Origin: a virus | IMG/VR virus record: IMGVR_UViG_3300036846_001111 | Span: 7,887 to 71,886 of that record | Strand: one strand, 5' to 3' | Length of the DNA stretch: 64,000 bases | Shown: piece after piece, positions 65-56,040 of the stretch | Numbering within the stretch: the first letter of the stretch is position 1 | How the letters are laid out: every line of letters begins with the position of its first letter | Position numbers and translations under genes: made by a program | Notes under the pieces: generated by a model | Databases searched by the model: none | What the model saw: only the letters and a program-made list of their open reading frames with translations | Told to the model about the DNA's origin: nothing

Positions 65-1540
65 TCAGGGATGCGCCTCACCCTTCGGCGGCTTCGATCC
101 GTAGGCCGCGATCTTCTGCAGCCGGCCCTCGCCGGACCCGGCGCCGGCCTTCACCCGGCCGCCACGCTTGCGCATCGGCATCGGCGGCGGTGGGCCGCCG
201 GCGCCCGGCGGCGGCATCGGCATCGGCGGACCCCCGGGCGGCATCCCGGGCGGGCCGGCCGCGGCCGGCGGCGGCAGCACCGGCGGCGTCGGCGGGCGCA
301 TTGGCGCCAGCGGACCACCGGGCGGCGGCGCAGGCTGGGCGTTGGCCCCGCCGGGCGAGATGATGATGTTGATCTTGGTGCCGGCCTTGCCGCCCTTGGC
401 GCGCGCGGCGCGTCCGCCCTTGGCGCGGGCGTCGGCGTCGAACTTGGAGAGCAGGCCGCCCTTGGCCTTCTTCGCCGCGCAGCGCGGGCACGTGCAGTCC
501 GGCCCGTGGCCCTGTTTGGCCTCGGCCTTCACCGCCTCGCGGATGTTGGCGCCGCCAGCGGCCCTGGCGCGGCCGCCGGCCTTGTGGCCTTCGCCTTCGA
601 CGTCGTGGCGGAAGCTCTGCGCGTTCCAGCCGGCGCGCCAGCCCAGGTGCTCGGGGGAGTCGGCCTCGTGCGGGTTGTCGGCCTTCTGCCTGCCCTCCGT
701 GTGCGCCCGCTCGCCGACCTGAAACGCCTTGTCGTAGATCGGCAGGCGCGGATCGGGGTCCCACGCCGAGGCCGGGCCACCCTTGGCCTTGCCCTCGCGC
801 ATGGCGTCGTGCTCGGCATGGTGCGCGGCCAGCACCTTGGTCTCGACGCTGCCGCCGTCCTTACGGCCGACCCGGCCGTAGCGCGCCTGCGCCTTGGCGC
901 GGCCATCGGTGACGATGCCGCCGTGCTTGATGCCCAGCTTCGCCCCGGTCGAGGCCTGCGGCCCGAAGTTGAAGCCGAGCCGGCCCTGGCCGCCCATGCC
1001 GGCCGCCAGCGGCGTCGCCAGCGGACCCCCAGCCTGACGGGCGACGCGGCCGCCGGCGGCGCGGCCGCGGCGATCCTCGGCCGCCGGCCGTTCCTCGGTC
1101 GACACCGTCGAGGAGCCGGTCGAGCGCTTCAGGCGCCGGGTGGCGCTGGCGCCGGCGGCCTCGGCGTTGGGCAGGTAGCCGCCCTCGGCGCGATGGGTGC
1201 GCCCGCCCTTCTTCATGCCGCCGTTAGGGTAGTGGCCCTCGCGCTCGGCGTCGGCCGACTTGGCGTCGCGATTGACCAGCGCGTTGGCGAAGCCGCCGCC
1301 CTTGCGCGGGCTGCGGCCGGGGTTGCCGCCGGCGTGCATGCCGACCACCGCGCCGCCGTCCTTGCGGGCCTGCCGGGAGACCGGCCGCATGCCGGTCTTC
1401 ACCCCGGCGTAGAGCTTCTCGGCCGGGGTGAAGTCGGAGGCGTCGACGTTCCTGGCGTCCTCGCCGCCGCCCAGGCGCTCGGCCTTGGCCTTCATCGCCT
1501 CGCGATAGGACTTGGCATCCGCTGCGCTCGCGCCAGCCAT
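65..1540 (-). CDS. Putative virion/internal protein with ~15 [RKMIH]-x-x-GG motifs, embedded Rmf/CrpP-like segment and Pro-rich C-terminus
   Basis: ORF 65..1591; ATG at 1540 preceded by GGAGG; lies just downstream of portal; motifs RKDGG, MKKGG, RAEGG, RAAGG, KAKGG etc. Confidence 0.8.
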   Translation of the reverse strand: MAGASAADAKSYREAMKAKAERLGGGEDARNVDASDFTPAEKLYAGVKTGMRPVSRQARKDGGAVVGMHAGGNPGRSPRKGGGFANALVNRDAKSADAEREGHYPNGGMKKGGRTHRAEGGYLPNAEAAGASATRRLKRSTGSSTVSTEERPAAEDRRGRAAGGRVARQAGGPLATPLAAGMGGQGRLGFNFGPQASTGAKLGIKHGGIVTDGRAKAQARYGRVGRKDGGSVETKVLAAHHAEHDAMREGKAKGGPASAWDPDPRLPIYDKAFQVGERAHTEGRQKADNPHEADSPEHLGWRAGWNAQSFRHDVEGEGHKAGGRARAAGGANIREAVKAEAKQGHGPDCTCPRCAAKKAKGGLLSKFDADARAKGGRAARAKGGKAGTKINIIISPGGANAQPAPPPGGPLAPMRPPTPPVLPPPAAAGPPGMPPGGPPMPMPPPGAGGPPPPMPMRKRGGRVKAGAGSGEGRLQKIAAYGSKPPKGEAHP

Positions 1541-1541
1541 C

Positions 1542-2120
1542 TCAGCCTCCTTTGGGCGGGGCGACCATGCCGCTCGCGGCGGCCTCGCCAACGGTCATGT
1601 TCAGGCCCGGCCGCAGCGCCTTGTCGGCATAGGGGTCGGGCGGCTGCAGCAGGTGCTCGAACTGCAGGTGCGCCTCGGCCGTGAGTCGGGCTGCGCGTTC
1701 CAGCACCGCGAGCGATGGCACCTGCCCGCCCGGGGTCTGCGCCTCGACGAAGAGCCCGAGCGTCTCCTTCAGATGGGAAAGCGCGCTCCTCAGGGTGTCG
1801 TCGCGGTTGGCGCTCATCTGTGCAGCCTCCTTGGCAGCCTCCCTGAACGGGTCCCAGGCGCCGAAGTTGTCCGACCGCCGCGGGTCCAGCGGCTCGGTGA
1901 CGTCGACCCGGTGATTGGCGACGGCGCCCTCGCGCGGCACGCCGAACACGTCCTCGTAGGTCGGCAGCCAACTGCGCAGGGTCGCCAGCGCCACGGTGAG
2001 GTGCTCTTCGGCGCGGCGCAGGTCGCTGACCGACGGCTGGCCCCACATCGGGGTGATCAGGGTGCGCGCCGATGCGAGGCGCGATCGCAAGAGGTGGATG
2101 GCCTGATCGTCCATCTGCAT
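1542..2120 (-). CDS. Hypothetical protein
   Basis: ORF between portal and the GG-motif gene, normal composition, tightly packed. Confidence 0.7.
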   Translation of the reverse strand: MQMDDQAIHLLRSRLASARTLITPMWGQPSVSDLRRAEEHLTVALATLRSWLPTYEDVFGVPREGAVANHRVDVTEPLDPRRSDNFGAWDPFREAAKEAAQMSANRDDTLRSALSHLKETLGLFVEAQTPGGQVPSLAVLERAARLTAEAHLQFEHLLQPPDPYADKALRPGLNMTVGEAAASGMVAPPKGG

Positions 2121-10968: not shown

Positions 10969-11002
10969 AGGACTTGACGTCCTACCATCACCCCGGTATT
11001 GA
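10969..11002 (+). promoter_or_regulatory. Palindromic operator/promoter copy 2
   Basis: AGGAC-TTGAC-GTCCT; N17; TATTGA. Confidence 0.8.
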
Positions 11003-11031
11003 TGTTCTCGTCAAGAGGAGATGACGACCCC

Positions 11032-41933: not shown

Positions 41934-42840
41934 CTAAGCGAAGCCCTTCAGCAGGCTCGCCAGCCACGTCTGTGACGCGCCGAAATAGGTCGCCACCAAG
42001 AGGTCGACGGCGTTGGCGGTGGTCGAGAGCACCCCGGCCGCGCCGCCGGCCCAACGGAAACTGGAGGGCCACACCGCGGTGCGCGCGCCGGCGGTGTCCT
42101 GCTGCAGGCGCACGTTGATGGTCTGCCCATCGACCATATTCGACAGCGCCGGCGCGCCGGTGAGCGAGGCCGTGAGGATGACCGAGAACACGTTCGACTT
42201 GGAGCAGTCGACCGCCATGGCGCTGGCCGCGAAGGTCAGCGGCAGCGTCTGGGTGGTCGCGCCGCCGCCCTGCATCACCAGCTTCGACGTCATCACGCCG
42301 CCGATCGCGAGGTTGCCGCCGACGCCCAGCGGCCCGCCGATGGTCAGCCCCTGCGTCGCGGTGCTGTAGGTGAGGCCGGTGTCGCCGGCGAGCGCACCGC
42401 CGACGTTGATCTGCACCTCACCGGGCACGCCGCCGGCGGTGGTGGCGACGGTGTTGCCGAGCCGCGCGCCGTTCACCGGGTCGATAACGACGGCGGTGGC
42501 CGCGCCCTTCGGGATGGTCGCCACCGCGCCGCCGCTGGCCGAGGCGAACGAGATCAGCGGCGCGCCGCCGGTGTTGTCATCGACGAAGAAGAACCGCCCG
42601 GCGCCGGCGGGTAGCTGGTAGGTGACCGCGGCCGCCGGCGTGCCGGTGATGACGAGGTTGGCGCAGGTGAACTGCGCCGTGGTCAGCGCGATCGTTCCTG
42701 ACGCACCCTGCGCGTTGAGGGTGGCGAGGCTGCCGAGCGCCGCGTCGACGGTGCCCGAGTTCTGGTTGACCGGCTGATCCCAGGTGCCGACGTCGCTGTT
42801 GTTGGGCGGGGTGACAAGCTGCAGGTTGGGGGTCGCCATC
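41934..42840 (-). CDS. Tail fibre-like structural protein
   Basis: TPNLQL..P......TW...N.N...D N-terminus; C-terminal QDTAGART..WP...W.GG....ST.ANAVD domain. Confidence 0.75.
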
Positions 42841-44830
42841 AAAGTCCCCTATTCGCCAGCGCCAGCGCCTTTACGACGGTAGCGTCGTCAAGGCCGAGCA
42901 GCGGCTTGGTGGCGGCGCGGCTGGCCTTCCCCTCACGCTCGGCGCGCGACATCAGCCGATCGGTGAGGCTGACCACCTTGCCGCCGTCGGCATATCCGAC
43001 AGCGCCGCCGGCAGCCTGGGGAAGCGGCACCTGCGAGAGATCGACACCACCATCTGCAGCCGCCGGCGCGGGAGCGGGAGCGGCAGCGCGCGGGCGCTCG
43101 GCCTTACGTTCAGGTTCCGGCGGCGGCGGGGGTGGAGCGGAGGCAGACTCGGGCTGGAGCGCGCCCGGGTCTGGGGGTTCTTCGTCGATGCCGGGCACGG
43201 TCGAAAGGTCGACAGGCGCGTCTTTCTCAGGGGTCGCTGGAGCGGACTGATCCACCCCTGGCGTCGTCGAGAGATCGGGGGCCGCCGGCGGCGCGTTGGC
43301 CGGGCCGGCGCGCTCTTCAGGTGGCGGCGGGGTCGGCGGCAGAGCGCCTGACCGCTGCAGGAACGGCGCGGTGCGCGCGCCGATGTCAGCGCCGGCGCCA
43401 GCGGCCTCGATCGGCGCGGCCCAGCCGCCGTGCACCGGCGCGCCGCCGGTGAGGGTGCGCTTCTCGGCCAGCTTGGCGAAGTAGGGGTCGAAGAACTGCT
43501 CGCCGAGCGCGCCGAGCCCGAACTCGCCGCCGACCAGCCCGGCGCCCGGGATCATGTGGAGGAGGTCGGACGCGCCCAGCGCATGCAGACCCGCGCCCAC
43601 GGCGGCCGTAGCGCCGGCGCCGACGCCGGCGCGCGCGATCCTGCCGACCCACGACGGCGCCATGCGCTCGCCGAGCCCTGGCTCGGCGTCGAGGATCGCC
43701 TTGCCGTTCGCAGCGAGGTTGAGGTCGGATAGCTCGGTCGGACTGAAGAGCGCCCGATCCGGGTGGGCGGGATCGGCCACCATCTCGCTGGTCTTGGCCG
43801 GATCGAACGCGCCGTCGGTCTTAACCGCGTTCATACGTCCCGCCTTCCACGTGTCGACCGCTGACGAATAGGGCTCGGTGGGCGGCGGACCCTTGCCGAC
43901 CATGTTGTCGACCTTGTTGTCGATGGCGGTGTGCGCGAGCCCCCTGGCCCGATCGACGCCCTCCGCGATGTGGCCGCTGGGCGGCGCGCGCTGGGTGACG
44001 GTCGGCATCGGGGCGGGGGCCGGCTCCTGAGGTGTGCCATGATAGGTCACCACCGCCTCGCGCGCGGCGTCCGGCGTGTTGCCCTTCGCGGTCAGGGTCC
44101 GGGCGAGGTGCGGCTTGAAGTTGGGGTTCTGGAGATCGGCCGGGCTGATGTTGGCCTTGGCCGCGGCGCGCTGCGCATTCGGGGTGAACTCGCCGTTCAC
44201 CACTGCCGGGCCGCCGCGGGCGATCTGCGTGCCCTTGCTGACCAAAGCGCCCGCGCCGGCGGCCGGATTGACGACGTAGTTGGCGCCGCGCGCGGTCCTG
44301 GCCGCGCCGCTGGCCACGCGCGCCGCGGCAGAAGCCTCGGGCAGCCGCGCCGCCAGCCCCTCCAGGCCGCCCTCGCCGGCCGTCAGCAGCATCGAGGCGT
44401 CCTGCACCACGCGCTCGGGATGGGTCGCCCAGGTCTGCTTGAGGCCGCCGGGAGAGAGGTAGGCGTTGCGGTAGTCGCGCGCGATGAGGTGGGCGGCATG
44501 GAAGGCGTCGACCGGCGAGCGGGCGACGTCGCCGACGGTCGGCCGCGCCATCACGTTCGGATTGCCAGAGACGACGCCGAGCGCCGCGCGGGTCGCGGTC
44601 AGCGAGGGTGATTCGCCGCGGCCGGCCGGGGTGCTCAGCGCCGTGGCGACGTTGTGCGCCTGATCGGTGATCCCGCCCCAGAGCGAGCTAGCGGTGGCCG
44701 GGATGACCTTCTTGGCGCCCTCCCAGAAGGCGTCGCCGGCGGACGCCTTCCGCCAGTTCTTCGGCGGCGCCGGCTTGGCTGGTGCGGGCTTGGACGGATC
44801 AGCGCCGGGCGCGAGTTTCCACTCAGGCAT
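42839..44830 (-). CDS. Putative DNA-ejection/internal virion protein
   Basis: Ala/Gly-rich helices, hydrophobic segment; QAAGG/YADGG; C-terminal TKPLL...D..V.KAL..A. Confidence 0.7.
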   Translation of the reverse strand: MPEWKLAPGADPSKPAPAKPAPPKNWRKASAGDAFWEGAKKVIPATASSLWGGITDQAHNVATALSTPAGRGESPSLTATRAALGVVSGNPNVMARPTVGDVARSPVDAFHAAHLIARDYRNAYLSPGGLKQTWATHPERVVQDASMLLTAGEGGLEGLAARLPEASAAARVASGAARTARGANYVVNPAAGAGALVSKGTQIARGGPAVVNGEFTPNAQRAAAKANISPADLQNPNFKPHLARTLTAKGNTPDAAREAVVTYHGTPQEPAPAPMPTVTQRAPPSGHIAEGVDRARGLAHTAIDNKVDNMVGKGPPPTEPYSSAVDTWKAGRMNAVKTDGAFDPAKTSEMVADPAHPDRALFSPTELSDLNLAANGKAILDAEPGLGERMAPSWVGRIARAGVGAGATAAVGAGLHALGASDLLHMIPGAGLVGGEFGLGALGEQFFDPYFAKLAEKRTLTGGAPVHGGWAAPIEAAGAGADIGARTAPFLQRSGALPPTPPPPEERAGPANAPPAAPDLSTTPGVDQSAPATPEKDAPVDLSTVPGIDEEPPDPGALQPESASAPPPPPPEPERKAERPRAAAPAPAPAAADGGVDLSQVPLPQAAGGAVGYADGGKVVSLTDRLMSRAEREGKASRAATKPLLGLDDATVVKALALANRGL

Positions 44831-44833
44831 GGA

Positions 44834-47800
44834 TCACCCATCCCGCTTCCCGGCCGTCCAGTAAATCTCGCCTTTGTGCTGCCCATACGGGACGACGTAG
44901 GGCGTGCCCGGCGGCAGCTTCTTGGCGGTCGCTTCATCGGCCGGGTGGCGCGGGAAGGCCTTCTTTCCGGCCTCCGACATGCCGGCGTAGTAGGGGATGT
45001 TGTCGGACATCGGCGCTTCGTAGCGGCTGAGCGGGTGCTCGCCGGCATAGTCGGTGTCGTACTGGCCGACGTTGTCGACGCGGTTCTGGTTGGCCCCCCA
45101 GTTCTTCCAGTATTCCTGGCCCCACTTCAAAGCCTGCGCCGTCTGCACCGACAGTTCGTAACGAGCATCGGGCTGCATCTTCGGGTCCGGCACGGTCTTG
45201 CCGATCAGGTTGGTCACGGTCGCGGGCGCGCCCTCGGCGAGATGGCTGAGATTCGCCTGCATGATGGTCTGCGCCGCGGTCAGCTTGGTCGCGAGGTCGT
45301 TGGACGCCTGATAGTCGCCGAAGGCCTTCTGGACGATCGGCCCGATCCCCGGCAGCGACGACAGCCGGCCGACCACCTCGGCGATCTGCGGCGTCAGCCG
45401 GTTGGTGTTGTGGTCGCGGTAGGTCAGGTTGATCGCGTTTTCGAGATTCCAGGCCGCCGGCGCCGTGGCGGACCATTCGCTCGCCTGCGCACCCTTGGCG
45501 ACCTTGGCCTTGGCAAACTCGCCCTCGGTCAGGTTCTGCTGACCCAGCTTCTGGCTGTACTGGTAGTACCCGTTGTACGGGTTGCCGTTGATGTCGTAGG
45601 GCGTCGTCTTGCCGTCACGGATCGACTGCGCAGTGGCGAGCATAGTCGCACCCTGCTGCTTCTCTTCCGGTGTCCGCCCCATCTGGACAAGGTCTTGGCC
45701 GTGCTGCGTCAGCCACTCCGGATCGGACATCTGCTGAAGCTGGACCGGAGGCTTGGGCTCGGGCAGATCGATGCCGGTGTTGAGGTAGTAGCCGCCAGCT
45801 AGCTTGTCTTTAAGCGGCGCGGTTGCAGCGATGTGACGCTTGACGCCAGTCGGCGCTGGCGCGGGGACATGAGCCACTGCTCCATCTCCAGGCGCTCTTG
45901 TTGCGACCGCTGCTGGCGGATGGCTGCCATCACCCCCTCGTACTTCGCCCGGTCCTCCCGATGGCGGTTGTCCGCCGCTATTAGGATGCGGCTGAGCGCC
46001 GACAGCAGCGGCGCCATCACCAGTAGGAGCAGGAGTAGGAGGCCCAAGGTTCGCTCCGTCAGCAGGCGGTGGGGTGGCGGAAACGCCATGCGAGGCGGCC
46101 ACATCTGAGCCACCCATAGCATCAATATACGGCCCCATCACTTGCTCATATCGCCGCGCATAGTCGTCGTTCGTGAGGAAGTTGCCGCTCATATCCTGCC
46201 AGCCACGCTCCGCATTGGGACCGAGCGCCGGCCTGAACATCATCTGGAAGCGCTGCTGCGCCAGTTGCGCCGCCTGGGCGCGGGCCTGCAGCATCCCGGC
46301 TTGAGCGGTCATCACACCGGTCGGGGCGCCGGCCGCCAGGGTCGTCTCCTGCAGGTTCTTCTGCGCGGCGCCCATCTCGTAGGCACGCTGATCCTGATAG
46401 CCCTTGGCGAACTGGCCAGCCCCAACCAGGGCGGCCACGAGCGGATGCTGGGTCGGCGCGCTCGCCCAGGCCGCCGCGCCTTCCAGCGCCGGAATCCAGA
46501 AGTCCGGCGACGTGATCTTGTCCATCAGCGTGCGCTTGGTCGGGTTCTGGGCGTGGACGAGGCCCTGCAAGTTCTCGGTCGCGGCCTGCGTCGCCGCCTC
46601 CGCGGACGTCTGGTAGTCCTCCGTCGTCGCGGGCCTCATCTGCACGGCCGGCGCGGCATCGGCTGCCGGCCCAGGCTGCGCGGCCGCGGCGAGGCCGGTG
46701 GGCGCCGGCGCGGCATCGACCGACGCGGCAGCCGCAGCCGGGGTGGCGGCCGCACCGTGCTTGGGCACGGACACCGTCGGATTGTCGGGATCGTTCGGGT
46801 CGACGAGGCTGCCGTCAGCATAGCCGGCGCGGCCACCTGCAGCGCGGCCGCGGCGCGACATCTGCGCTATGCGCTGGCCGGCCCAGCCGACGAACTGCCC
46901 GGCCGTCTTGCCCTTCATAATCGAGGGGTTGGCGGCGATCGAGGCGGGGCTGACTACTTGGCTGAGCGGCGTCGACGGGTCGGCGTGCAGCACCCGGATG
47001 GCGTCGTGCGGGCCGAGCACCCAAGCCGAGTAGGCGTTGCCCGGCGAGGTCGGATCGATGCCGGCGTGGGTGAGCGCCAGGGCGTTCTGCTTGGCCAGCA
47101 CCGGCGCCAGTTGCGCCGATAGCTGGTCGCCCTCGGGCGTCGAGCGCAGCGCCTTGATATCGCCCTTCGACATGCTGGCGGCGCGCTGCGGGTACTGCTG
47201 GCGGAACAGCCCCTCGAACGTCGAGTCGATCATCTGGAAGGGGCCGCGGGCCGACGAGGACGGATTCTTGCCGGTGCCCTCGGCGCGCGCGATCGCGCCC
47301 AGCAGGCCACCGGGAGGGGCAGGTCCGGCGTCGGAAGGCCCCGCAGCCGCGCCAGGAGGGGCGCCAGAGCCGCCCGGAGGCGCGGCGCCTGCGAAGCCAG
47401 CGGCGGCCGCCGGCGGGCCTCCAGCGGCGTCTGTGGGGCCGCCAGCCTGTGGTGCGCCGCTGTCGGCATGGGCGAAGCCGCTGGCTGGGTGCAGGTTCGC
47501 CTCGAACCGGCGCAACAGGATGTTGTCGACCGGATCGCCGCCGGACGGGTCCTCGCCGCCGAGCGCCTGATCGACCGCATCCGGCGCACCACCGTCGGCA
47601 AAGCCGATGCGGCCGCCACGGTTGGCGAACATCGCGGCGATCTTCGCGATGTCCATGATGTCGGACATGGTCTGGTCGCCGCCGCTGCCGCTCTTGGACG
47701 GCTGGGAGACCGCAAGCTGGGCGCGCGGCGCTTCCTCGGGGATGTCGAGGCCCGCGCCGTGGTCGTTATAGAGATCGTCGGGCGTGTCGCCACCCTCGGC

Positions 47801-49789
47801 GCGTCTGATGCGGCCGCCGCGCGACGCCAGCATCAGGAACGGCAGCAGGCTCGCCATGCCGCTCGCGCCGGCGCCGATGCCCGCGCCGATGCCCGCCATG
47901 CCGGCCCCCGCAGCGCCAGCCGCAGCGCCGGCGCCACCCAAGCCGCCCATCAGGCCAGAGATGCCGCTGCCGATCGCGGGCGCGAGTTTCGCAGCGCCCT
48001 CGCCGATCTGGGCGATGTCGGCCCCGGCGCCGAGCGCCTTGGAGAAGCCGCTCTCGCCCTGGCTGGGCGGCGCGGCCGTCTTCAACTGCTGCGGGGTCTG
48101 GCCTTGGGTAGGGATATGCAGGCCCGGCCCCGAGCCGCCGCCGTAAGGGTTGTCGTTCTCGGGATCGGAAAGGTCGCCGCCGCCCTGCCGGTGGGCGCGC
48201 GCGAAGCCGCCGAAGGCGAACGGGACGACCGGATCGGGCTCGCGCCCAGAAGCCCACTGCGCCATCTCAGCAGTGCTCGGCGGCGCGGCAGCCTCGGCCA
48301 AGTCCGCGTCCGAGATGCCCTTGGTCGGATCGAAGGTCGGCGACCACGACTGGTCGCTCAGCCAGTTCGCCGCCTTCTGGCCGGTCTCTGCCATCGACTT
48401 GACATCGCCGGCGGCCTCGGCGGCCTTGTGCAGGCCGGCCTGGGGCGATTCCGTCGGCGGGTGGGCGATCTGCAACTGCCCGACCGGCAGGCTCGCCTGA
48501 GGCACGTAGCCCATGGCGCCGCCGTGGGGCGCACCACTGGCGCTCGCACCGTAGAGCGCGCCCTGCTGGTAGGGCCCGTACATCTGCTCCTGCGCCTGCA
48601 GCAGTTGCGCGATGACCATCGGGTTGGCGCCGCCAGGGTACATGCCCCACTCGGAGAGCCCGCCGCCCTGGCGCGCGATGCGCCCGCCGGCGGCGCGCGC
48701 GCGGCGCGCCTCGGGCTCGGGTTCCCAGTCGTCGTTGGCGGCGAGCGCGAAGCCGGCGGATTCGGCGGTGGCGCGGCCATAGTCGACGGCCAGGAAACCG
48801 CTCGGGTGGTGGATGATCGCCTCGGGGTGGAAGCGCGTGGTCTCCTGGGCCGAGAGGCCGATCCGCACCGTCGGATCGCCGCGGTAGCGGAAGCGGATGA
48901 CGTTCTGGCCTTCGAACGTCTTGCCGATCGGGATGATGTCTTCCTTGAGCCGATCGTCAGAGAATAGACCGCCGGGCTGCGTGGTCGTCGTAGTAGAACC
49001 GGACAGAGCGCCGGTGCCTTCAGCGATATTGGCCAAGAATTGAGCGGTCTGGAACGGGTAGCTTTGCTGTTGAAGGAACTGGTTATACAAAGCTGTCAAC
49101 CCAGCTTGCTGGGTCTGTTGCTCGACTTGGCCCGCGCCCAACTGTGCTTGCGCACCACTGAGGGCAGCGCCCTGCGCGCCGGTGCCGAGGCCGGCCAGCG
49201 CTTCGCCGGTCTGCTGCAGCGCGCCGCGGTTGGCCTGCTGCGCGGCGAGGCCGACGCCCTGCTGCTGCATCGCCGTCTGCTGGGCCTGCTGGTAGGCGTC
49301 GGAGAGGATGCCTGAGTAGGTCTGCCCGGCGGCCAGTTGCTGCTGCTGCGCGAGGTTGGCCGCGGCGATGCCCGAGCGATCGCCGCCGAACGCGCCCGAC
49401 TGGATCGCGGTGCCAAGCTGGCCCGCCTGCTGCTGCTGGTTGGTCTGGTTGATCAGTTGCTCGGTCGAGCCCAGCACGCTGCCGACATACGGGTTGTAGT
49501 ACTGGCCGATGTTGAGCGCGCCGGGGTCCACCGCCTGCGATCCAGCCAGGGCAAAGCCGCTGGCCGCGTTGAAATACGGCTGCGCCATGCCGGCCGCGGT
49601 GTTGGTATTGGCGATGCCGGCTTCCTGGGTCGGCGTCACCGGCGCGACGAAGGCGTTCGGGTTGCTGCTGTACTGCTGGAACGGCGTCTGCGCGACGTTC
49701 TGGGCGGTGGCGTTGACGGCGTTGTACCTCGCCAAGACTTCAGGCGGGATGGTGACGCCAGAGGTCGAGGTACTGGTCTTACCGCCCAT
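44834..49789 (-). CDS. Large ejection/internal virion protein: Gln-rich N-domain, internal peptidase S74-like chaperone domain, lysozyme/transglycosylase-like domain
   Basis: SDDRLKEDI...IGLSAQE...G.LAVDY; AIARAE..KNPSSSARGPFQMIDSTF; five GG doublets. Confidence 0.85.
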   Translation of the reverse strand: MGGKTSTSTSGVTIPPEVLARYNAVNATAQNVAQTPFQQYSSNPNAFVAPVTPTQEAGIANTNTAAGMAQPYFNAASGFALAGSQAVDPGALNIGQYYNPYVGSVLGSTEQLINQTNQQQQAGQLGTAIQSGAFGGDRSGIAAANLAQQQQLAAGQTYSGILSDAYQQAQQTAMQQQGVGLAAQQANRGALQQTGEALAGLGTGAQGAALSGAQAQLGAGQVEQQTQQAGLTALYNQFLQQQSYPFQTAQFLANIAEGTGALSGSTTTTTQPGGLFSDDRLKEDIIPIGKTFEGQNVIRFRYRGDPTVRIGLSAQETTRFHPEAIIHHPSGFLAVDYGRATAESAGFALAANDDWEPEPEARRARAAGGRIARQGGGLSEWGMYPGGANPMVIAQLLQAQEQMYGPYQQGALYGASASGAPHGGAMGYVPQASLPVGQLQIAHPPTESPQAGLHKAAEAAGDVKSMAETGQKAANWLSDQSWSPTFDPTKGISDADLAEAAAPPSTAEMAQWASGREPDPVVPFAFGGFARAHRQGGGDLSDPENDNPYGGGSGPGLHIPTQGQTPQQLKTAAPPSQGESGFSKALGAGADIAQIGEGAAKLAPAIGSGISGLMGGLGGAGAAAGAAGAGMAGIGAGIGAGASGMASLLPFLMLASRGGRIRRAEGGDTPDDLYNDHGAGLDIPEEAPRAQLAVSQPSKSGSGGDQTMSDIMDIAKIAAMFANRGGRIGFADGGAPDAVDQALGGEDPSGGDPVDNILLRRFEANLHPASGFAHADSGAPQAGGPTDAAGGPPAAAAGFAGAAPPGGSGAPPGAAAGPSDAGPAPPGGLLGAIARAEGTGKNPSSSARGPFQMIDSTFEGLFRQQYPQRAASMSKGDIKALRSTPEGDQLSAQLAPVLAKQNALALTHAGIDPTSPGNAYSAWVLGPHDAIRVLHADPSTPLSQVVSPASIAANPSIMKGKTAGQFVGWAGQRIAQMSRRGRAAGGRAGYADGSLVDPNDPDNPTVSVPKHGAAATPAAAAASVDAAPAPTGLAAAAQPGPAADAAPAVQMRPATTEDYQTSAEAATQAATENLQGLVHAQNPTKRTLMDKITSPDFWIPALEGAAAWASAPTQHPLVAALVGAGQFAKGYQDQRAYEMGAAQKNLQETTLAAGAPTGVMTAQAGMLQARAQAAQLAQQRFQMMFRPALGPNAERGWQDMSGNFLTNDDYARRYEQVMGPYIDAMGGSDVAASHGVSATPPPADGANLGPPTPAPTGDGAAAVGAQPHPNSGGQPPSGGPGEVRGGDGSHPPAAVATRAPGDGAVAHVPAPAPTGVKRHIAATAPLKDKLAGGYYLNTGIDLPEPKPPVQLQQMSDPEWLTQHGQDLVQMGRTPEEKQQGATMLATAQSIRDGKTTPYDINGNPYNGYYQYSQKLGQQNLTEGEFAKAKVAKGAQASEWSATAPAAWNLENAINLTYRDHNTNRLTPQIAEVVGRLSSLPGIGPIVQKAFGDYQASNDLATKLTAAQTIMQANLSHLAEGAPATVTNLIGKTVPDPKMQPDARYELSVQTAQALKWGQEYWKNWGANQNRVDNVGQYDTDYAGEHPLSRYEAPMSDNIPYYAGMSEAGKKAFPRHPADEATAKKLPPGTPYVVPYGQHKGEIYWTAGKRDG
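45799..46047 (-). CDS. Putative overprinted membrane protein (+1 frame inside the ejection gene)
   Basis: GGAG-N6-TTG; MGLLLLLLLVMAPLLSALSRILIAA then a charged helix; G/C-ending codons favour this frame over the host frame locally. Confidence 0.45.
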   Translation of the reverse strand: MGLLLLLLLVMAPLLSALSRILIAADNRHREDRAKYEGVMAAIRQQRSQQERLEMEQWLMSPRQRRLASSVTSLQPRRLKTS

Positions 49790-50348
49790 CGTCGTCGGCC
49801 TTCATGCCGCGCGAGCCCGGTTGGTATATCCAGTATGCGCCTGCGGGCTTGCCGAGGACGCGCTGATAGAGCCTGACCTTCGCCGCTGTCCGGTGGTTCG
49901 ACAGCACCCCGATCGAGAGCGGCAGGCCGAGGTTATCAGCAACGTCCATGCTGAACTCCGCGAGTCGCGCCGCGCGGCCTCCACGCGCCCCTCGGAAGGC
50001 GGGATGCACGAAGATCGCACGCTCCTCGACGTGCTCTTGGTCCGTGTACCACATGTTTCCGATGCGCAGCAGAACGGCCCCCTCCAGTGGTCGGCTGCCC
50101 GGCGCCCCGATCACCCCGATGATGCCCTTTTCGAGGTTGAGGGCGGCCCAGACGTCCTGCAGGACGCGGATGGGATTGTGGATTTGGAACTCGTTCTCGG
50201 CGCAGCCCATCAGCGCCAGTTCCATGACGGCGTCGACCTCGTCGGGCGTCGCCGTGCGCACGTGCGGCAGCGGCGGCTTCTCGACCATCGGCCGCTCGTA
50301 GAGCCCGGGCTCGATCTGCTCCTCGGTCATGGTGATCTTCTCAGTCAC
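49779..50348 (-). CDS. GNAT-fold virion assembly protein (positional analog of P22 gp14/T7 gp13)
   Basis: VR.ATP.E, IFVHPAFRG...A..L, LY.R motifs; lies directly upstream of the ejection gene. Confidence 0.7.
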   Translation of the reverse strand: MTEKITMTEEQIEPGLYERPMVEKPPLPHVRTATPDEVDAVMELALMGCAENEFQIHNPIRVLQDVWAALNLEKGIIGVIGAPGSRPLEGAVLLRIGNMWYTDQEHVEERAIFVHPAFRGARGGRAARLAEFSMDVADNLGLPLSIGVLSNHRTAAKVRLYQRVLGKPAGAYWIYQPGSRGMKADDDGR

Positions 50349-53082
50349 GCGCCGGCCCCGGCAGCTTCTGCAGCGTCTGGATATGCTTGGCGCGCGACCG
50401 CTTGACGAACTCATCGAGCACCCGGCAGCCAAGCTCGGGATCACCGCGGCCGGCGGCGCGCACCTGCTGCGGCGAGAGCACGTACTCGCCGCCCGCCGCC
50501 ACGATCGGCACGCCCTCGTCGCCGTGGTCGGTGGCCGCCCCGCCACGCGACTGGAAGCGTGGATCGGTGATGTCGACCATGTCGTCGGGCTCGTCGTAGG
50601 CGCTTAGCTGCCGGCCGATCGCCGCCTTCTTGACGTCGGCCGCGGTCTGCCGCTCGCGCGCCTGGGCGGTCTGGTGGCGCAGCATGAACTTCTCGGGCAG
50701 GTGCTTCATGCCGCCGCCCTTGATGTGCAGCACGCCGTCGTGGTCGCGCTCGGCCTCCAGGCGGTTGTCCTCGCCGGCCGGCATGCCCCGCAGCGCCTCG
50801 GGGACGTCAGGATTGCCCGAACTCAGGTACTCGCTGGCGTCGTGGTGGATCGCCTTGTCGGCTGGCCACCACACGTGCCCAGCCGGGCTGGCGAGGCCGC
50901 GGGCGATCTTCTGCGGCGGCGCGCCGGGGATTTCGGCCTGCATCGGCTTGGCGGCGTCGACGATCTCGCGCACCCGGCTGGCCGGCGGATTGTCGTGGAA
51001 AAGGACACTCTGTCCGCGCACGGAGCCGCCGAAGGCGCGGTTCTGGATGTCCTCGCCGTAGGGGCCCGAGCCCTGGCCGTAGGGTCCGCCGCTCTGGCCG
51101 TAGGGCGCGCCGCCGAAGAGCCGCCGCATCACCTTGAAGCCGGCCTGGGTGTTGCCCTCGCCGTGGCTGCTGACCACGTCCGCTGGCAGCACGTAGGAGC
51201 CGGACGGCACGTGCATGTTGAGGTGGTCGGTGCGGCCCGAGACGTGGCTGTGGATCGGCCCGACGTGCAGGTGGTGGCCCTTCAGGTTGGAGTGGAAGAG
51301 CCGCGGCCCGGCCGGCCCGCCCTCGGCGCGCCCCACCCGGCCACCGGCATGCCGCAGCGGCATCTCGCCCCGGATGAACCGATCGCGGACGTCGCGCGGG
51401 TCCATGCCGGTTTCGTGCGCGGTCTGGTGGATGCGGTCGGTGAGGAAGCCCATGAACGGCTTGGAGGAGTCGGAGGCGAGGCCGGTCTTGGCGCCGCCGC
51501 CCACCCAGCCTGAGGCCTGCGTCTCGGCCGGCGCCATGCCCATCTCGCGCCCCATGCCTTGATAGTAGTGCTCCATCGCGGCGTACTCGTTGGCGTTCGG
51601 CTGCTCGGTCCAGTAGGCGGCGTGCTCGGGATCGAGCGCCTCGCTCATCGGTGTGATGCCCTGCGCGACCTCGCGCTGGATGTTCCGCTGCGGGATGCCC
51701 TTGCCGGTCTGGTAGCCGGTGGTCAGGAAGCGCGGGTCCTGCGCCAGGATCGCCGGCAGCCGGAAAGCATGGGTGTCGATCGTCGCCGGGCGCCAGTTGC
51801 CGGTGAGATTCTCGACGAAGCTGGCCGGCTTCGGGTTCTGCAGCGGGTCCCAGCCGGCGCCGTGCACCCGTTGCGCGTTGAGGATGTGCAGGTCTTGCGC
51901 CATATGCCCGTAGGGCTGCGGCAGTTTCTTCCCGCCAAACACCTTCTCGCCGGTCGGCATGGGCTGCCCGGTGACGTCGCGGTGGAAGTAGTAGGAGGCG
52001 TTGCGCGCGTTGGCGCTCACGTCTGAGCGCGGCGAGGTCGCGGCCACGTAGTCCATGTAGCGGCGGAACATCCGGTTGCCGGTGTCCTCGCCGTGGTGGC
52101 GGACGAACTCCTGGCGCAGCGGCTCGGCGTTGTACCAGTTCTGGGCGCCCGCCTGTCGACCACGCTCGATGTGCTCCATCACCCCCTGCCGCACCTGCTT
52201 GTTGGCGACGAGGTCGGCTACCCGCTTGGAGACGCCGCGCGGCGGGTCGTAGCGGGGCAGATCGAACTGCGGGACGTCGGGCGGCCGCTCCATGTGCGAC
52301 ATGTCGAACAGCGGCTCGTTCGGCGGCCCCGGGTCGAACTTCTTGGTCTTCGGCAGGCCCTGCCAGCCGCCGGGCGTCCACAGTTGGCTCTCCGCGGCGC
52401 CGCCGCCCTGTCGTCCCACGCGGCCGCCGCGCGCGTACTCGGGCTCCTGGCCCAGCGACATCCGCGCGACGTTCTGGGGCGACCACTTGCCCGGCGTCTG
52501 CTCACCGCCGTTGAACCAGCGCACCTCGGCGCGGACCTTCGGCACGCTGAGCGCCTTGGCGATCGCGGCGCGGGTGTTGCCCTCGGCGAGGTAGGCATGG
52601 CCGTGGTGGTTGACGGTGACGAAGACCGGGTGGTTGTGCGGATCGAAGCCGCCCTGCTCCTTCACTTGACCCATCAGGCGGTCGTACTGCGGGTCGCCCG
52701 GCTTGCGGTCCTCGTTGTTGATGCCGCCGAGCGCCGCCAGATGCTTGGTCGGCAGCATCGGGTACTCGGCGAGATGGGCGGTCATCGCGCCGTTGAGGCC
52801 CTTGGCGCCGAAGCCCATCTTGCCCGCGCCACCACGCGCGGCGGCGTCCTCGTCGGCCCACCGCTGCTTGGAAGCCAGCCAGTCCCCGCCAGGATTGTCA
52901 GCCTTGAAGCCAAGGGTCTGCAGGTGGTCAGCGACGAGACCGCTGCCGCCGCCATCGGCGCGACTCTCGCGCGCGGTGCGCATCGCCGCGGCCACCGCCT
53001 GCCGCTGCGGATGGCCGGCGTGCACCATCTCACGGATGTTCGACGATATAGTTTTTTCGGAAGATCCTGACTCCAGCGGCAT
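50341..53082 (-). CDS. Multidomain virion cargo protein: conserved N-terminal peptide, ParB/Srx-like domain, HhH-glycosylase-like (DUF7178-type) domain, split conserved core
   Basis: MPL..GSS..TISSNI.EM...GHPQ.QAVA.A; LAEGNTRA..A; WY...AATSP..V..N...K...F..NL.G...TIDTH...QA..W; GRTDHL...GSYVLPADVV / GGEYVLSP..V. Confidence 0.8.
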   Translation of the reverse strand: MPLESGSSEKTISSNIREMVHAGHPQRQAVAAAMRTARESRADGGGSGLVADHLQTLGFKADNPGGDWLASKQRWADEDAAARGGAGKMGFGAKGLNGAMTAHLAEYPMLPTKHLAALGGINNEDRKPGDPQYDRLMGQVKEQGGFDPHNHPVFVTVNHHGHAYLAEGNTRAAIAKALSVPKVRAEVRWFNGGEQTPGKWSPQNVARMSLGQEPEYARGGRVGRQGGGAAESQLWTPGGWQGLPKTKKFDPGPPNEPLFDMSHMERPPDVPQFDLPRYDPPRGVSKRVADLVANKQVRQGVMEHIERGRQAGAQNWYNAEPLRQEFVRHHGEDTGNRMFRRYMDYVAATSPRSDVSANARNASYYFHRDVTGQPMPTGEKVFGGKKLPQPYGHMAQDLHILNAQRVHGAGWDPLQNPKPASFVENLTGNWRPATIDTHAFRLPAILAQDPRFLTTGYQTGKGIPQRNIQREVAQGITPMSEALDPEHAAYWTEQPNANEYAAMEHYYQGMGREMGMAPAETQASGWVGGGAKTGLASDSSKPFMGFLTDRIHQTAHETGMDPRDVRDRFIRGEMPLRHAGGRVGRAEGGPAGPRLFHSNLKGHHLHVGPIHSHVSGRTDHLNMHVPSGSYVLPADVVSSHGEGNTQAGFKVMRRLFGGAPYGQSGGPYGQGSGPYGEDIQNRAFGGSVRGQSVLFHDNPPASRVREIVDAAKPMQAEIPGAPPQKIARGLASPAGHVWWPADKAIHHDASEYLSSGNPDVPEALRGMPAGEDNRLEAERDHDGVLHIKGGGMKHLPEKFMLRHQTAQARERQTAADVKKAAIGRQLSAYDEPDDMVDITDPRFQSRGGAATDHGDEGVPIVAAGGEYVLSPQQVRAAGRGDPELGCRVLDEFVKRSRAKHIQTLQKLPGPARD

Positions 53083-55569: not shown

Positions 55570-56040
55570 CTACACCTCCAGATGCCGCCAGCTTTTCCGG
55601 GTGCGGAGCATGCGAATAGCGGCGGCGCTGACGCCATAGGTCGCCCCGACCTCGGCACTGGTCATGCTGGATGGCAACATAAAGATCGTGCGCGCCTGGG
55701 TCTCTGTCAGCTTGGCGCGAGCGTTGATTTCTCCGCGGGGACGTCCCTGCCGACCTTTCCCGTTTCGATCAGCCATGTTCGCAGCGTGATCGCCAAGGAC
55801 GAGGTGGTCGCGGCTGCGACAGAGAGGCGTATCGCAGGTATGCATAACCTGCGCACCGGGCGGGACCGGGCCGTGCTCGACCTCCCAGGCAGCACGGTGG
55901 ACGGGAACCGCCCGCCCTTTGACCGTCAGCCGTCCATAGCCCTTGCGTGTATCGCCAAGCCACAACTGGCAGTGCCCCTCAACGTAGGGCTCTGAAAAGG
56001 CATCCAGCCGTTCCGCCAGAGGTTTCGCTTTGCGGGGCAT
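55570..56040 (-). CDS. HNH homing endonuclease with C-terminal HTH
   Basis: C.LW.G...GYG, VHRAAW, VMHTCDTPLC...HL.LG.HA.N..D; lower GC. Confidence 0.9.
   Translation of the reverse strand: MPRKAKPLAERLDAFSEPYVEGHCQLWLGDTRKGYGRLTVKGRAVPVHRAAWEVEHGPVPPGAQVMHTCDTPLCRSRDHLVLGDHAANMADRNGKGRQGRPRGEINARAKLTETQARTIFMLPSSMTSAEVGATYGVSAAAIRMLRTRKSWRHLEV

Follow-up and report, generated by a model that had tools for sequence, protein, structure and literature searches.

Phages and conjugative elements encode polyvalent proteins (Iyer, Burroughs, Anand, de Souza and Aravind 2017, PMC5512222), which are predicted to be packed into the head, injected and processed, and zincin-like MPTase domains have been proposed as the processing enzyme; the main text of that paper mentions neither glycine nor linker nor Gly-Gly. 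In T4, diverse internal proteins are packed via a conserved capsid-targeting sequence (PMC3012670), and in SPN3US a short motif is where the prohead protease cleaves many head and ejection proteins, with several cuts in one propeptide being common (PMC10052503). Here we describe a late operon from an uncultured short-tailed phage, which encodes head-packaged cargo/ejection proteins built like beads on a string, with a short motif in disordered sequence as the connector, perhaps also a cutting site. The window that we analyzed, a stretch of 64,000 nucleotides, covers most of this podophage genome, which is complete at 71.9 kb and has 70% GC. Our literature searches found no earlier description of a Gly-Gly junction motif.

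The motif unit is [K/R/F/Y/M]-A-x-G-G, and it is frequently doubled as GG-R-[V/I/A/T]-x-[R/K/Y/F]-[A/Q]-x-GG. The motif had been noticed in a first-pass annotation, and the observation holds well beyond the source genome. The four motif-bearing late ORFs named there all exist, and almost all copies in the whole genome fall in these four proteins and one small basic protein:

50341..53082, minus strand: P0001, 913 aa, a conserved ejection-protein core of about 200 aa plus three inserted modules
44834..49789, minus strand: P0002, 1651 aa, ejection protein (phrog_4287 'DNA ejection protein' over aa 1-343)
42839..44830, minus strand: P0003, 663 aa, late ORF with one doublet
65..1540, minus strand: P0004, 491 aa, post-portal, with 13 matches to the single motif strung along it, four within doublets

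For P0004, the ATG that gives 65..1540 is the most likely start of a 508-aa ORF (65..1591); this is the extent already annotated, and it agrees with the 491-aa database copy P0005. The motif string reported there is present, at 13 counted matches rather than about 15. Matches to [RKYFM][AKQ]xGG number 13 in P0004, 7 in P0002, 5 in P0001 and 1 in P0003, or 26 in 3,735 residues, whereas 500 residue shuffles averaged 2.7 matches and never exceeded 8. The remaining 89 rough gene calls hold 12 matches in 17,878 residues (shuffle mean 5.2, maximum 12) and are therefore also slightly enriched. The strict doublet pattern was matched nine times among 93 gene calls, always within the four late proteins. 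When 805 six-frame ORFs were scanned with a matrix trained on 319 motif instances from 111 homologues, all in other genomes, matches were found only in P0004, P0002, P0001 and a 64-aa basic protein, and reversed ORFs from six genomes gave no hits. The 64-aa protein lies at genome positions 1662-1856, just beyond the window edge. A scan of the genome, as the annotation had proposed, thus finds the motif confined to late, internal or ejection-type proteins.

Doublet spacing is fixed at 6 (351 observed versus 30 in shuffles); inside the doublet an Arg is conserved, as is V/I/A/T, and R/K swaps with Y/F at one position. Both doublet halves and the two single sites of P0001 (A and B, below) follow one pattern, in which P5 is a large residue and P4 is Ala, Gly-Gly comes next and a small residue follows. 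Ala makes up 79% of P4 residues at site B (n=135) and 61% at site A (n=77), and K/F/R are favoured at P5 even after Pro/Tyr/Gly-rich, non-helical sequence. The five-residue pattern is kept across clusters of about 40-60% identity, and low-GC relatives retain the motif with Lys replacing Arg; what stays invariant is Gly-Gly and Ala rather than charge. Because the motif codons vary synonymously, the signal lies at the protein level and is not a DNA repeat. A short helix, x-x-K-A-L-x-h-A, stands before or after Gly-Gly at the ends of many cargo proteins and is also present in stand-alone DUF7178 proteins of about 343 aa.

The annotation placed the motif at the domain borders of the 913-aa P0001, and independent homology does put the module ends beside the motifs:

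52963..53082, minus strand: N-peptide, aa 1-40, two helices, DUF6496/phrog_2423-like (phrog_2423 over aa 1-42, E 2.5e-11)
52948..52962, minus strand: site A, single motif RADGG, aa 41-45, adjoining the phrog_2423 match
52438..52947, minus strand: inserted module 1, aa 46-215, judged by eye to resemble ParB/Srx
52399..52437, minus strand: doublet YARGGRVGRQGGG, aa 216-228, matrix score 21.8 bits
51346..52335, minus strand: inserted module 2, DUF7178 domain, aa ~250-579 (Pfam E 3.2e-5, below the curated cut-off)
51316..51354, minus strand: doublet RHAGGRVGRAEGG, aa 577-589, adjoining the end of the DUF7178 alignments
51040..51306, minus strand: core half 1, aa 593-681 (by BLAST, related loci hold 60+ homologous ORFs)
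51025..51039, minus strand: opening copy of site B, RAFGG, aa 682-686, which corresponds by homology to the [K/F/R]-A-x-GG conserved ahead of core half 2
50554..51024, minus strand: inserted module 3, aa 687-843, function not assigned, missing from most relatives
50539..50553, minus strand: site B closing copy QSRGG, aa 844-848, also found in other representatives
50344..50538, minus strand: core half 2, aa 849-913 (homologue alignments)

The core, made up of the N-peptide and the two core halves, belongs to a family of 3,620 cluster representatives. Two confident helices are seen for the N-peptide in the model of a short homologue, and the Gly-Gly of site A is near-invariant in 24 short homologues and present in 60 of 65 anchored representatives. 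Stand-alone homologues of module 1 align to aa 59-200 (the 159-aa protein) and 50-210 (the 185-aa protein), ending ahead of the doublet at aa 216-228, and a tblastn match in a Dolichospermum phage covers aa 59-215; the ParB-like assignment made for this module was not confirmed by Pfam. Module 2 had been called glycosylase-like, for which we find DUF7178 and fold matches to 8-oxoguanine DNA glycosylases that are weak and non-significant. There are 258 shorter DUF7178 homologues, and the 120 listed span 263-498 aa; among these 120, BLAST alignments of the stand-alone proteins to P0001 start at aa 258 in 70 cases and mostly end at 575-588. Only aa ~250-579 are confident in the AlphaFold model of P0001 (pLDDT 75-98), and the first Gly-Gly of RHAGGRVGRAEGG aligns with the F-A-N-G-G that closes the stand-alone DUF7178 proteins of about 343 aa. 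Core half 1 aligns with a 193-aa protein of MW202675.1, ending ahead of RAFGG, and module 3 is missing from that homologue. The closing copy at site B recurs in cluster representatives such as P0202 and P0222. Both sites lie in linkers of pLDDT<50 adjoining confident modules; site A caps a helix directly, and site B separates, in the predicted model, the halves of a single conserved fold with two lobes. This core model had no structural match in the PDB, and the core halves were separate genes in none of the 150 best representatives.

Across a large uncultured clade, insertions, losses and moves of enzyme and mini-protein modules fall exactly on the Gly-Gly junctions, which is what the annotation had proposed looking for. 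Both Gly-Gly sites are invariant or nearly so in the 24 short core homologues, relative to which each insert begins right behind Gly-Gly and finishes in [R/K]-A-x-GG. Among diverse cluster representatives, 36 of 39 long inserts have a closing motif at most 45 aa from core half 1, versus 7 of 26 short linkers (Fisher p 5e-8, the rows not being independent). At the two core sites relatives carry Nudix, ART-PolyVal, InPase, GNAT, ParB-like and small helical modules; these are effector types known from phage polyvalent proteins, as the earlier idea of effector cassettes would have it, and no peptidase domain was found among the inserts of 93 longer core-family members. In a 739-aa protein of MW202675.1 the order is GNAT, YASGG, M15 and YADGG and, further along, KAAGG, ART-PolyVal and HARGG, and the post-portal polyvalent proteins of MW202675.1, L099, L100, L113 and L119 share the Gly-Gly junctions. 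The phrog_2423 and DUF6496 families consist of proteins of about 52-58 aa. The more distant relatives RW and CRP-901 have no motif, and CRP-901 encodes DUF7178 as a separate gene; no cultured member of the clade was found in the phage collection. Since one motif joins the modules and relatives swap modules there, it looks like a standard connector for swappable cargo.

The other three late proteins carry the following features:

48944..48961, minus strand: P0002, SDDRLK, aa 277-282, Ser-x4-Lys signature (S74 match and alignment)
48659..48697, minus strand: P0002, doublet RAAGGRIARQGGG, aa 365-377 (pattern and matrix)
48176..48214, minus strand: P0002, looser doublet FGGFARAHRQGGG, aa 526-538, spacer of 8 (pattern)
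47789..47827, minus strand: P0002, doublet ASRGGRIRRAEGG, aa 655-667, right behind a Gly/Ala-rich hydrophobic stretch
47588..47626, minus strand: P0002, doublet ANRGGRIGFADGG, aa 722-734, with an amphipathic helix-like stretch in front
46808..46846, minus strand: P0002, doublet RAAGGRAGYADGS, aa 982-994, GS-ended (pattern)
42980..43018, minus strand: P0003, doublet QAAGGAVGYADGG, aa 605-617 (pattern)
1178..1216, minus strand: P0004, doublet MKKGGRTHRAEGG, aa 109-121 of the 491-aa form, the genome's top matrix score (36 bits)
1025..1063, minus strand: P0004, doublet RAAGGRVARQAGG, aa 160-172 (matrix)
626..733, minus strand: P0004, RMF-like small module between KAKGG and HKAGG (Pfam RMF)
389..427, minus strand: P0004, doublet RAKGGRAARAKGG, aa 372-384 (matrix)
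134..172, minus strand: P0004, variant doublet RKRGGRVKAGAGS, aa 457-469, GS-ended (pattern)

P0002 consists of a fibre-like N-terminal part, a Peptidase_S74 module and a mosaic middle with the five doublets expected from the annotation, namely four and a looser fifth, the one at aa 982-994 ending in GS. The Pfam S74 match covers aa 277-318, and S74 in the MW202675.1 homologue scores 43.8 bits, above the Pfam cut-off; Ser-x4-Lys in SDDRLK is what we take to be the signature of the S74 intramolecular-chaperone autocleavage site. Aligned with five close relatives, the middle of P0002 is a shuffled mosaic, and the helix-plus-doublet cassette of ANRGGRIGFADGG is found at different positions in relatives. 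That the motif brackets every domain was too strong a claim, as no copy occurs in the final ~650 aa of P0002 or in P0003 before about aa 600. In the P0003 family, only the doublet and the last ~45 aa are conserved in relatives. P0004 contains small modules (the RMF match has E 1.9e-4 and 21.9 bits, under the 27.9-bit cut-off), a Pro-rich stretch and a conserved GAGSGEGRL-type C-terminal end; its family has 1,559 matches at E<=0.001, and the P0004 position is occupied by exactly one ORF with 1-7 doublets in 34 of 37 portal-centred loci.

We lean, tentatively, towards the prediction that the motif is a processing site at which an endoproteolytic cut after Gly-Gly would free the modules. The polyproteins would be packed into the procapsid and cut either as the head matures or once they have entered the host, and the freed modules, which are stand-alone proteins elsewhere (DUF7178, ParB-like protein, Nudix, ART, InPase, GNAT, DUF6496 and RMF-like peptide), would act on their own; cutting would turn P0004 into about 24 peptides, all short and most of them basic. 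We count in favour of processing the restriction of the motif to four late proteins and one small basic protein, the bracketing of inserts, the occurrence of modules as whole proteins elsewhere, the polyvalent proteins with the same junctions, and the T4, SPN3US and polyvalent-protein precedents. The repeated five-residue unit also looks like a P5-P1 protease subsite pattern, the position of both sites in linkers of pLDDT<50 would make them accessible, and the self-cleaving S74 module of P0002 indicates that proteolytic maturation is not foreign to these proteins.

Against processing, we found no conserved protease. The complete genome gave no hits to PF04586, PF14550, PF03412, PF02902, PF00770, PF14464, PF01551 or PF01343, nor was an adenain/Ulp-like, C39, JAB, M23, S49 or HK97-type prohead protease found in it, so that the search for a cysteine/Ulp-like or prohead protease suggested by the annotation came back empty. 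When the late proteins were scanned with PHROG and Pfam, and 20 early/middle proteins with Pfam, the sole peptidase named was an ArdC-type MPTase; its gene lies on the early strand, and the family is missing in all five complete relatives that have the motif. The capsid protein has 304 aa and is accompanied by a separate coiled-coil scaffold-like protein, an arrangement in the style of T7 and P22, and short-tailed phages with a separate scaffold usually lack a prohead protease. The inserts hold no peptidase, and site B splits one fold whose halves are separate genes in none of those 150 representatives. The protease could be a host enzyme or a fold that has so far escaped recognition as a peptidase, the clade-specific P0001 core being a candidate.

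The constraint on the doublet likewise exceeds the need of two adjacent cut sites and fits a single bound unit. This agrees with a possible but rather doubtful alternative, an uncleaved docking motif for encapsidation, in which a short linear peptide would bind a many-copy procapsid partner (the inner capsid surface, scaffold, portal or P0001 core), and the carriers would be co-assembled, held in the head and ejected intact as strings of domains, with encapsulin cargo-loading peptides and the T4 capsid-targeting sequence as precedents. Confinement to internal proteins, the high multivalency of P0004-like proteins, and the fixed spacing, conserved inner residues and R/K-Y/F interchange typical of a pocket-binding peptide all argue for docking, as do the P0003 family's retention of only the doublet and C-terminal tail, the tag-like terminal helix by Gly-Gly, the negative protease searches and the unsplit core halves. 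A single tag per protein would suffice, however, which leaves the closing copy of each inserted module and the conservation of single five-residue copies unexplained; the partner is hypothetical, and modules that act as free proteins of ~50 aa elsewhere would stay tied in a chain of ~500 aa.

It is unlikely that the motif is a linker idiom spread by recombination, a lineage-specific flexible connector of helix end and Gly-Gly hinge that tolerates insertions and may ease the unfolding of long chains and their passage through the tail; the copies flanking inserts would be left over from recombination between stretches that encode linkers, and nothing would read them specifically. The junctions are disordered, site A caps a helix, inserts could survive only in linkers, the P0002 middle is a mosaic, and neither reader nor protease is known, all of which would suit a linker. 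Yet the five-residue pattern persists at the identities given above, with its P4 Ala and P5 preferences, the fixed spacing of 6 is not seen in generic linkers, and, given the differing codons and the Lys-for-Arg replacement, DNA homology alone cannot maintain the motif. Very improbable is a DNA-contact role, in which Arg/Lys-/Gly-rich repeats would bind packaged DNA like RGG boxes or AT-hooks, condensing it and tethering the cargo to the genome for a joint exit: P0004 is very basic (net charge +38), with a K- and R-rich family consensus and a His/Cys knuckle-like element, GPDCxCxxC, but the P0002 and P0003 doublets are neutral or acidic (GGRIGFADGG, GGAVGYADGG), P0002 has a net charge of -33, and charge is not among the invariant features. 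The earlier interpretation is partly supported, namely in the confinement of the motif, the exchange of domains at Gly-Gly and the effector types; a protease site and an encapsidation tag are both candidate roles.

Like polyvalent proteins, the proteins described here join unrelated effector domains in one polypeptide (ART-PolyVal, InPase, NUDIX, GNAT, M15, ParB-like), and their genes lie among the virion genes of portal-terminase phages; the absence of the MPTase family from the five relatives departs from the polyvalent-protein model. In the T4 gp21 and phiKZ/SPN3US gp245 systems we see the same use of a short common signal to mark diverse internal or ejection proteins, many times per protein, with diverse anti-host proteins as cargo, although a prohead protease has been identified there and none was found in this phage. 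T4 cuts at L/I-x-E and the phiKZ group at A/S/G-x-E, in both cases after Glu, and these proteases mostly remove N-terminal propeptides, whereas the present motif ends in Gly-Gly and sits between modules, and its cleavage is putative. Gly-Gly tails are processed by adenovirus adenain, ASFV pS273R and Ulp/deubiquitinases. The likeness to these lies in Gly-Gly at P2-P1, in polyprotein or head-to-tail units ending x-x-G-G, and in basic DNA-associated peptides released from precursors, a release that is proposed here; in contrast, no C5 or C48 peptidase was found in the genome, P4 is Ala rather than Met/Leu/Ile, and adenain and pS273R belong to eukaryotic viruses, so homology is not implied. Encapsulin cargo-loading peptides stand at a terminus, one to each cargo, and stay uncut; they too are short Gly-containing peptides with flexible linkers, bringing varied cargo to the interior of an HK97-fold shell, but the present motif is internal and repeated and brackets modules, and its capsid binding is putative. 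The block of small and large ejection-protein genes behind a nozzle-like gene is like T7 gp13-gp16, and the proteins of ~130, ~200 and >1,100 aa are close in size to those of T7; no sequence or fold match to the T7 internal core proteins gp13-gp16 was found, and to our knowledge those have no such motif and no inserted effector domains. What distinguishes the present proteins from polyvalent proteins is a defined five-residue junction motif and a dedicated carrier of about 200 aa with two fixed insertion sites, and these are new features.

The first-pass annotation had proposed that a Gly-Gly motif, [RKYFM]-[AKQ]-x-G-G, often doubled, marks four late proteins of this phage, here P0001 (913 aa), P0002 (1651 aa), P0003 (663 aa), and P0004 (491 aa), all on the minus strand. 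The unit is better written [K/R/F/Y/M]-A-x-G-G, often as a doublet of two Gly-Gly spaced by 6 (GG-R-[V/I/A/T]-x-[R/K/Y/F]-[A/Q]-x-GG). The proposal was borne out by the strict doublet pattern, for which all 9 matches among 93 rough gene calls fell within P0001 to P0004. When the single pattern was scanned for restriction to late proteins, it was about 10 times denser in these four (26 matches in 3,735 residues; mean 2.7 and maximum 8 in 500 shuffles) than in the other 89 gene calls, whose 12 matches in 17,878 residues are themselves a slight excess over shuffles (mean 5.2, maximum 12). To avoid circularity, a scoring matrix was built from other genomes, in which 111 P0004-family proteins supplied 319 Gly-Gly/6/Gly-Gly instances for training. 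Among 805 six-frame ORFs of the present genome it matched only P0004, P0002, P0001, and a 64-aa basic protein beside the capsid gene, and on the reversed ORFs of six genomes it matched nothing at any of three thresholds. Gly runs in the P0004 family are separated by exactly 6 residues in 351 cases versus 30 in shuffles, and the family logo reads [R/M/K/L]-[K/A]-x-G-G-R-[A/T/V]-x-[R/K]-A-x-G-G. Codons differ between motif copies, so selection acts on the peptide. The 64-aa protein is encoded downstream of the capsid gene, just outside the window (1662-1856, minus strand, of L001, the whole contig); it has longer homologues in three other genomes (G001, G003, and G004), which have a 'HAGRKPRK-GG' stretch in common with the N-terminal part of P0004.

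The source contig is a single sequence of 71,886 bp and 69.5% GC, of which the window takes bases 7887-71886, and it was rated 100% complete with terminal repeats by the source collection. One late operon on the minus strand crosses the contig junction. Terminase, portal, capsid, adaptor, and ejection-protein genes share a strand, which is the virion setting of a portal-terminase phage, and the gene layout is of the short-tailed type. Megablast found no DNA-level neighbour in the phage collection, and in tblastn searches for cultured relatives, run with P0001, P0004, and a homologue of the core, the core and P0004 matched only uncultured Manatee Spring records.

Order of genes in the late operon
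First part: small terminase, large terminase, portal, 199-aa protein, motif-rich P0004
Next: GroES-like protein, coiled-coil scaffold-like 335-aa protein, 304-aa capsid protein
Past the contig junction: fibre-like genes, 1,387-aa protein, SU10-type adaptor, HNH endonuclease, 693-aa virion protein
Last part: 132-aa protein, P0001, weak GNAT-like ORF, P0002, P0003, tail fibre

Features placed within the late operon
L001 7364-7753, minus strand: GroES-like co-chaperonin gene in the head module; also in phages RW and CRP-901
Window 62932-63999, minus strand: contig-end ORF, into which the ORF at the contig start (L001 1-844) runs on
Window 55570-56040, minus strand: HNH endonuclease gene, between the adaptor gene and the 693-aa virion protein gene
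Window 49779-50546, minus strand: weak GNAT-like ORF between P0001 and P0002 (Pfam E 0.0031; PHROG acetyltransferase E 3.9e-4)

The two contig ends have 29 nt in common. The contig-end ORFs are continuous, so one fibre-like gene spans the junction. The true start of the GNAT-like ORF is probably later, since the listed start overlaps the end of P0001; an annotated acetyltransferase sits at the equivalent position in MW202675.1, the record of a related uncultured phage.

In P0001, three segments correspond to separate proteins, and each adjoins a motif.

Segments of P0001 with separate counterparts
aa 1-42: ~52-aa phage family phrog_2423; adjoins RADGG at 41-45
aa 50-210 (ParB-like module): two proteins that occur on their own, 159 and 185 aa long; adjoins the doublet at 216-228
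aa 258 to 575-588: 258 DUF7178 proteins that stand alone, of which the 120 listed measure 263-498 aa; adjoins the doublet at 577-589
Window 51346-52335, minus strand: DUF7178 domain, with a confident all-helical model

The AlphaFold model of P0001 is confident exactly over ~250-579 and falls below 50 from residue 580; in that full-length run the core and ParB-like parts were modelled poorly, leaving DUF7178 as the sole confident part. In a stand-alone DUF7178 class of ~343 aa, the domain is followed by F-A-N-G-G and then by a 20-aa tail with a short helix, so this motif of separate cargo genes is homologous to the Gly-Gly that opens the P0001 doublet at 577-589. P0001 itself scores 24.4 bits against DUF7178 (Pfam PF23802), where the cut-off is 27 bits, and PF23802 is precomputed for most of the 120 listed homologues, whose identity falls from ~60% for the first listed to 45-50% for the last. 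Foldseek gave weak rows only for this domain, the best being 8-oxoguanine DNA glycosylases (1xqo, E 0.059; 3n0u, target-normalised TM-score 0.54), and there is a weak sequence row to GH19 chitinases (E 0.036).

The nearest annotated relative of P0001, a 193-aa protein of MW202675.1, aligns to aa 1-45, 605-686, and 856-913 only. Across 80 related loci compared around the 693-aa gene, the N-peptide, core half 1, and core half 2 are conserved, and inserts of 0 to ~1,100 aa are placed after the N-peptide and sometimes between the core halves. The idea that domains are gained and lost at Gly-Gly held in this alignment: every insert starts directly after site A, which follows the N-peptide, or site B, which precedes core half 2, and ends with its own [R/K]-A-x-G-G. 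Examples include a ~45-aa 'LYANIHAK' module in three loci, a ParB-type module in L016, and a Nudix domain in L027. The Gly-Gly of both sites is invariant or nearly so in 24 short homologues.

At E<=0.001, a core profile matched 3,620 cluster representatives, the best 150 of which range in length from 173 to 1,500 aa. Both the N-peptide and core anchors matched in 65 of these 150. There, a closing motif lies within 45 aa of core half 1 in 36 of the 39 proteins with an insert of >90 aa versus 7 of the 26 with short linkers, a contrast whose Fisher p of 5e-8 overstates the evidence because the rows are related. In 108 of the 121 anchor-matched proteins among the best 150 of the 3,620 representatives, site B has a Gly-Gly <=22 aa from core half 2, and the residues three and two places ahead of that Gly-Gly (P5-P4) are mostly KA, FA, RA, MA, or YA; with a looser core-half-2 anchor (n=135), Ala occupies P4 in 79%. 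Pfam domains in 93 longer representatives comprise ART-PolyVal (8), NUDIX (3), GNAT (3), InPase (2), and single cases of DUF7178, a nucleotidyltransferase, and DUF6098, with no peptidase domain among them.

An AlphaFold model of a 200-aa core homologue, built with 24 sequences, has confident lobes at a pTM of 0.44. Foldseek found no match to it in the PDB at E<=0.001, and a protein-atlas search returned unnamed viral clusters and a 0.77-score lead to a crAss cargo family that is at chance level. Searches of solved structures with the P0001, 199-aa post-portal, and 335-aa scaffold-like sequences gave nothing significant. A predicted complex of the core (alignment A1) and a 63-aa P0004-like fragment of the same relative scored 0.00, a value that, run without controls, speaks neither for nor against binding.

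The P0004 family has 1,559 matches at E<=0.001. In 34 of 37 portal-centred loci, doublets (1-7 of them) are confined, among the ORFs listed, to a single ORF at the same post-portal position; of the remaining three loci, two stop just past the portal and one has a homologue with single motifs only. P0004 is very basic (charge +38) and, when cut computationally at each Gly run, gives 24 pieces of 5-68 aa. Its modules vary between relatives, again with indels at Gly-Gly, and the relatives' large post-portal proteins have the same Gly-Gly junctions between Pfam domains. Pfam finds DUF6496 in 3 of 107 family members. A stretch of P0004 resembling RMF (window 626-733, minus strand; 21.9 bits, below the 27.9-bit cut-off), found in 1 of the 107, is a lead only. 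A His/Cys knuckle-like element, 'GPDCxCxxC', at aa ~340-350 is conserved in homologues.

P0002 matches a PHROG family named 'DNA ejection protein'. Its relatives have an N-terminal fibre-like part and an S74 module in common, followed by a mosaic middle in which the helix-plus-doublet cassettes sit at different places from one relative to the next. Aa 277-318 match Peptidase_S74 below the 22-bit cut-off (17.8 bits, E 0.004), the MW202675.1 homologue scores 43.8 bits, and SD[DE]R[LV]K is kept in 6 of 6 aligned P0002-type proteins. The Ser-x4-Lys at aa 277-282 we take to be the signature dyad of the Peptidase_S74 intramolecular-chaperone module. This signature (window 48944-48961, minus strand) lies mid-protein in P0002 rather than C-terminally, and aa 1-276 would be released by autocleavage at this point. 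A putative lytic transglycosylase at aa ~830-980 was read by eye; SLT is present in the MW202675.1 homologue, Pfam makes no SLT call in P0002, and aa 801-1000 have no PDB sequence match.

Relatives of P0003 have only a doublet and the last ~45 aa in common. A short terminal helix, x-x-K/R-A-L-x-h-A/T, occurs at the N or C termini of cargo proteins, usually beside Gly-Gly, as at the P0003 C terminus (window 42839-42880, minus strand) and in L099, L113, L119, MW202675.1 proteins, and P0275-P0305. It may be a packaging tag. A strict 'K-A-L' pattern matches only the P0003 C terminus in this genome, and a first pattern matched 1 of 120 DUF7178 tails; with counts this low, the helix tag rests on the listed examples.

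We conclude that the motif marks the points where head-packaged proteins exchange modules, and that this junction signal is conserved, specific, and disordered. As to what it does, we tentatively favour a processing site that may be cut after Gly-Gly, because each module brings its own closing copy, because modules are whole proteins elsewhere, because both doublet halves and both single sites have one P5-P1 pattern, and because T4 and the phiKZ group offer a precedent for short motifs on internal proteins. A more far-reaching version, which seems to us rather doubtful, is that a large clade of uncultured tailed phages has a Gly-Gly-specific virion polyprotein system with a new phage-encoded protease that cuts after [K/R/F/Y]-A-x-G-G. 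That protease might be the clade-specific, two-lobed P0001 core itself, which is flanked by two sites of its own. A few long chains would then be packed, from which cutting would release exchangeable anti-host enzymes, mini-proteins, and basic peptides, with the two fixed sites of the ~200-aa carrier acting as a plug-in socket for injected cargo.

The cysteine/Ulp-like or prohead protease considered in the first-pass annotation did not emerge from a six-frame search of the complete genome with eight peptidase families, all of which were negative. The Gly-Gly-type peptidases PF00770, PF02902, PF03412, and PF14464 (clan CE/C39/JAB) gave no match, nor did the prohead protease families PF04586, PF14550, and PF01343, the T4-type PF03420 lying outside the search, and no late protein has a PHROG protease label. 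The family searches and PHROG/Pfam scans found a single peptidase in the genome:

Window 10999-11925, plus strand: early-strand zincin gene with ArdC-N and MPTase-PolyVal (E 3e-36 and 1e-46)

This protein is likely an anti-restriction protein. It was rejected as a conserved partner, PF18818 being present in 0 of 5 complete relatives, and neither it nor the SprT-like protein of MW202675.1 had a tblastn match in the related loci examined. The main weakness of the processing reading is that these searches yielded no protease and that the sole peptidase is not conserved.

A serious rival, which we nevertheless hold to be less than probable, is that the motif is an uncleaved docking motif. The fixed geometry of the doublet and the conservation of the terminal helices are in keeping with docking, as is the position of site B inside one fold whose halves are never split into two genes. 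A pure linker idiom is unlikely: it fits the disorder of the junctions and their mosaicism, but not their conservation at the level of single residues. A role in DNA contact is very improbable, as it fails for neutral and acidic copies.

P0001-P0004-type proteins fall under the concept of polyvalent proteins. Like these, P0001 combines a DUF7178 domain, a ParB-like module, and an insert of unknown kind in a carrier core, a 739-aa protein of MW202675.1 combines GNAT, M15, and ART-PolyVal, and the genes lie among the virion genes of a portal-terminase phage. In polyvalent proteins, as far as the main text of the defining paper describes them, a linked zincin-like MPTase is proposed as the common processing domain, frequent but not universal (PMC5512222); here, in contrast, MPTase-PolyVal occurs only in the separate ArdC-like early gene. 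That main text does not name a junction motif (PMC5512222), and a literature search, with supplements outside its scope, returned nothing on a Gly-Gly junction in phage cargo, on DUF6496, or on polyvalent-protein cleavage in virion mass spectrometry. Caulobacter phage RW and Roseobacter phage CRP-901 have a similar head-gene order and portals of ~28-32% identity; neither has the motif, the core, or P0004, and CRP-901 encodes DUF7178 as a separate gene. In T4 and the phiKZ group, a short motif marks internal proteins, according to the parts of those studies that treat it (PMC3012670, PMC10052503). Our proteins likewise have a short motif in common, but unlike in those phages no prohead protease was found with the families searched. 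Cutting at the junctions would make this the first polyprotein processing system of the Gly-Gly type in tailed phages and a concrete, testable answer to how polyvalent proteins become working effectors, a question dating from 2017. If they are uncut, the results still define a very common carrier (3,620 cluster representatives) that takes inserts at two fixed sites by way of a five-residue connector, nature's means of loading different enzymes into phage heads. They also flag P0004-like post-portal proteins and the core family as abundant, unstudied virion components, and give a rule by which cargo can be read in uncultured phages and which may serve as a design rule for packing chosen proteins into particles.
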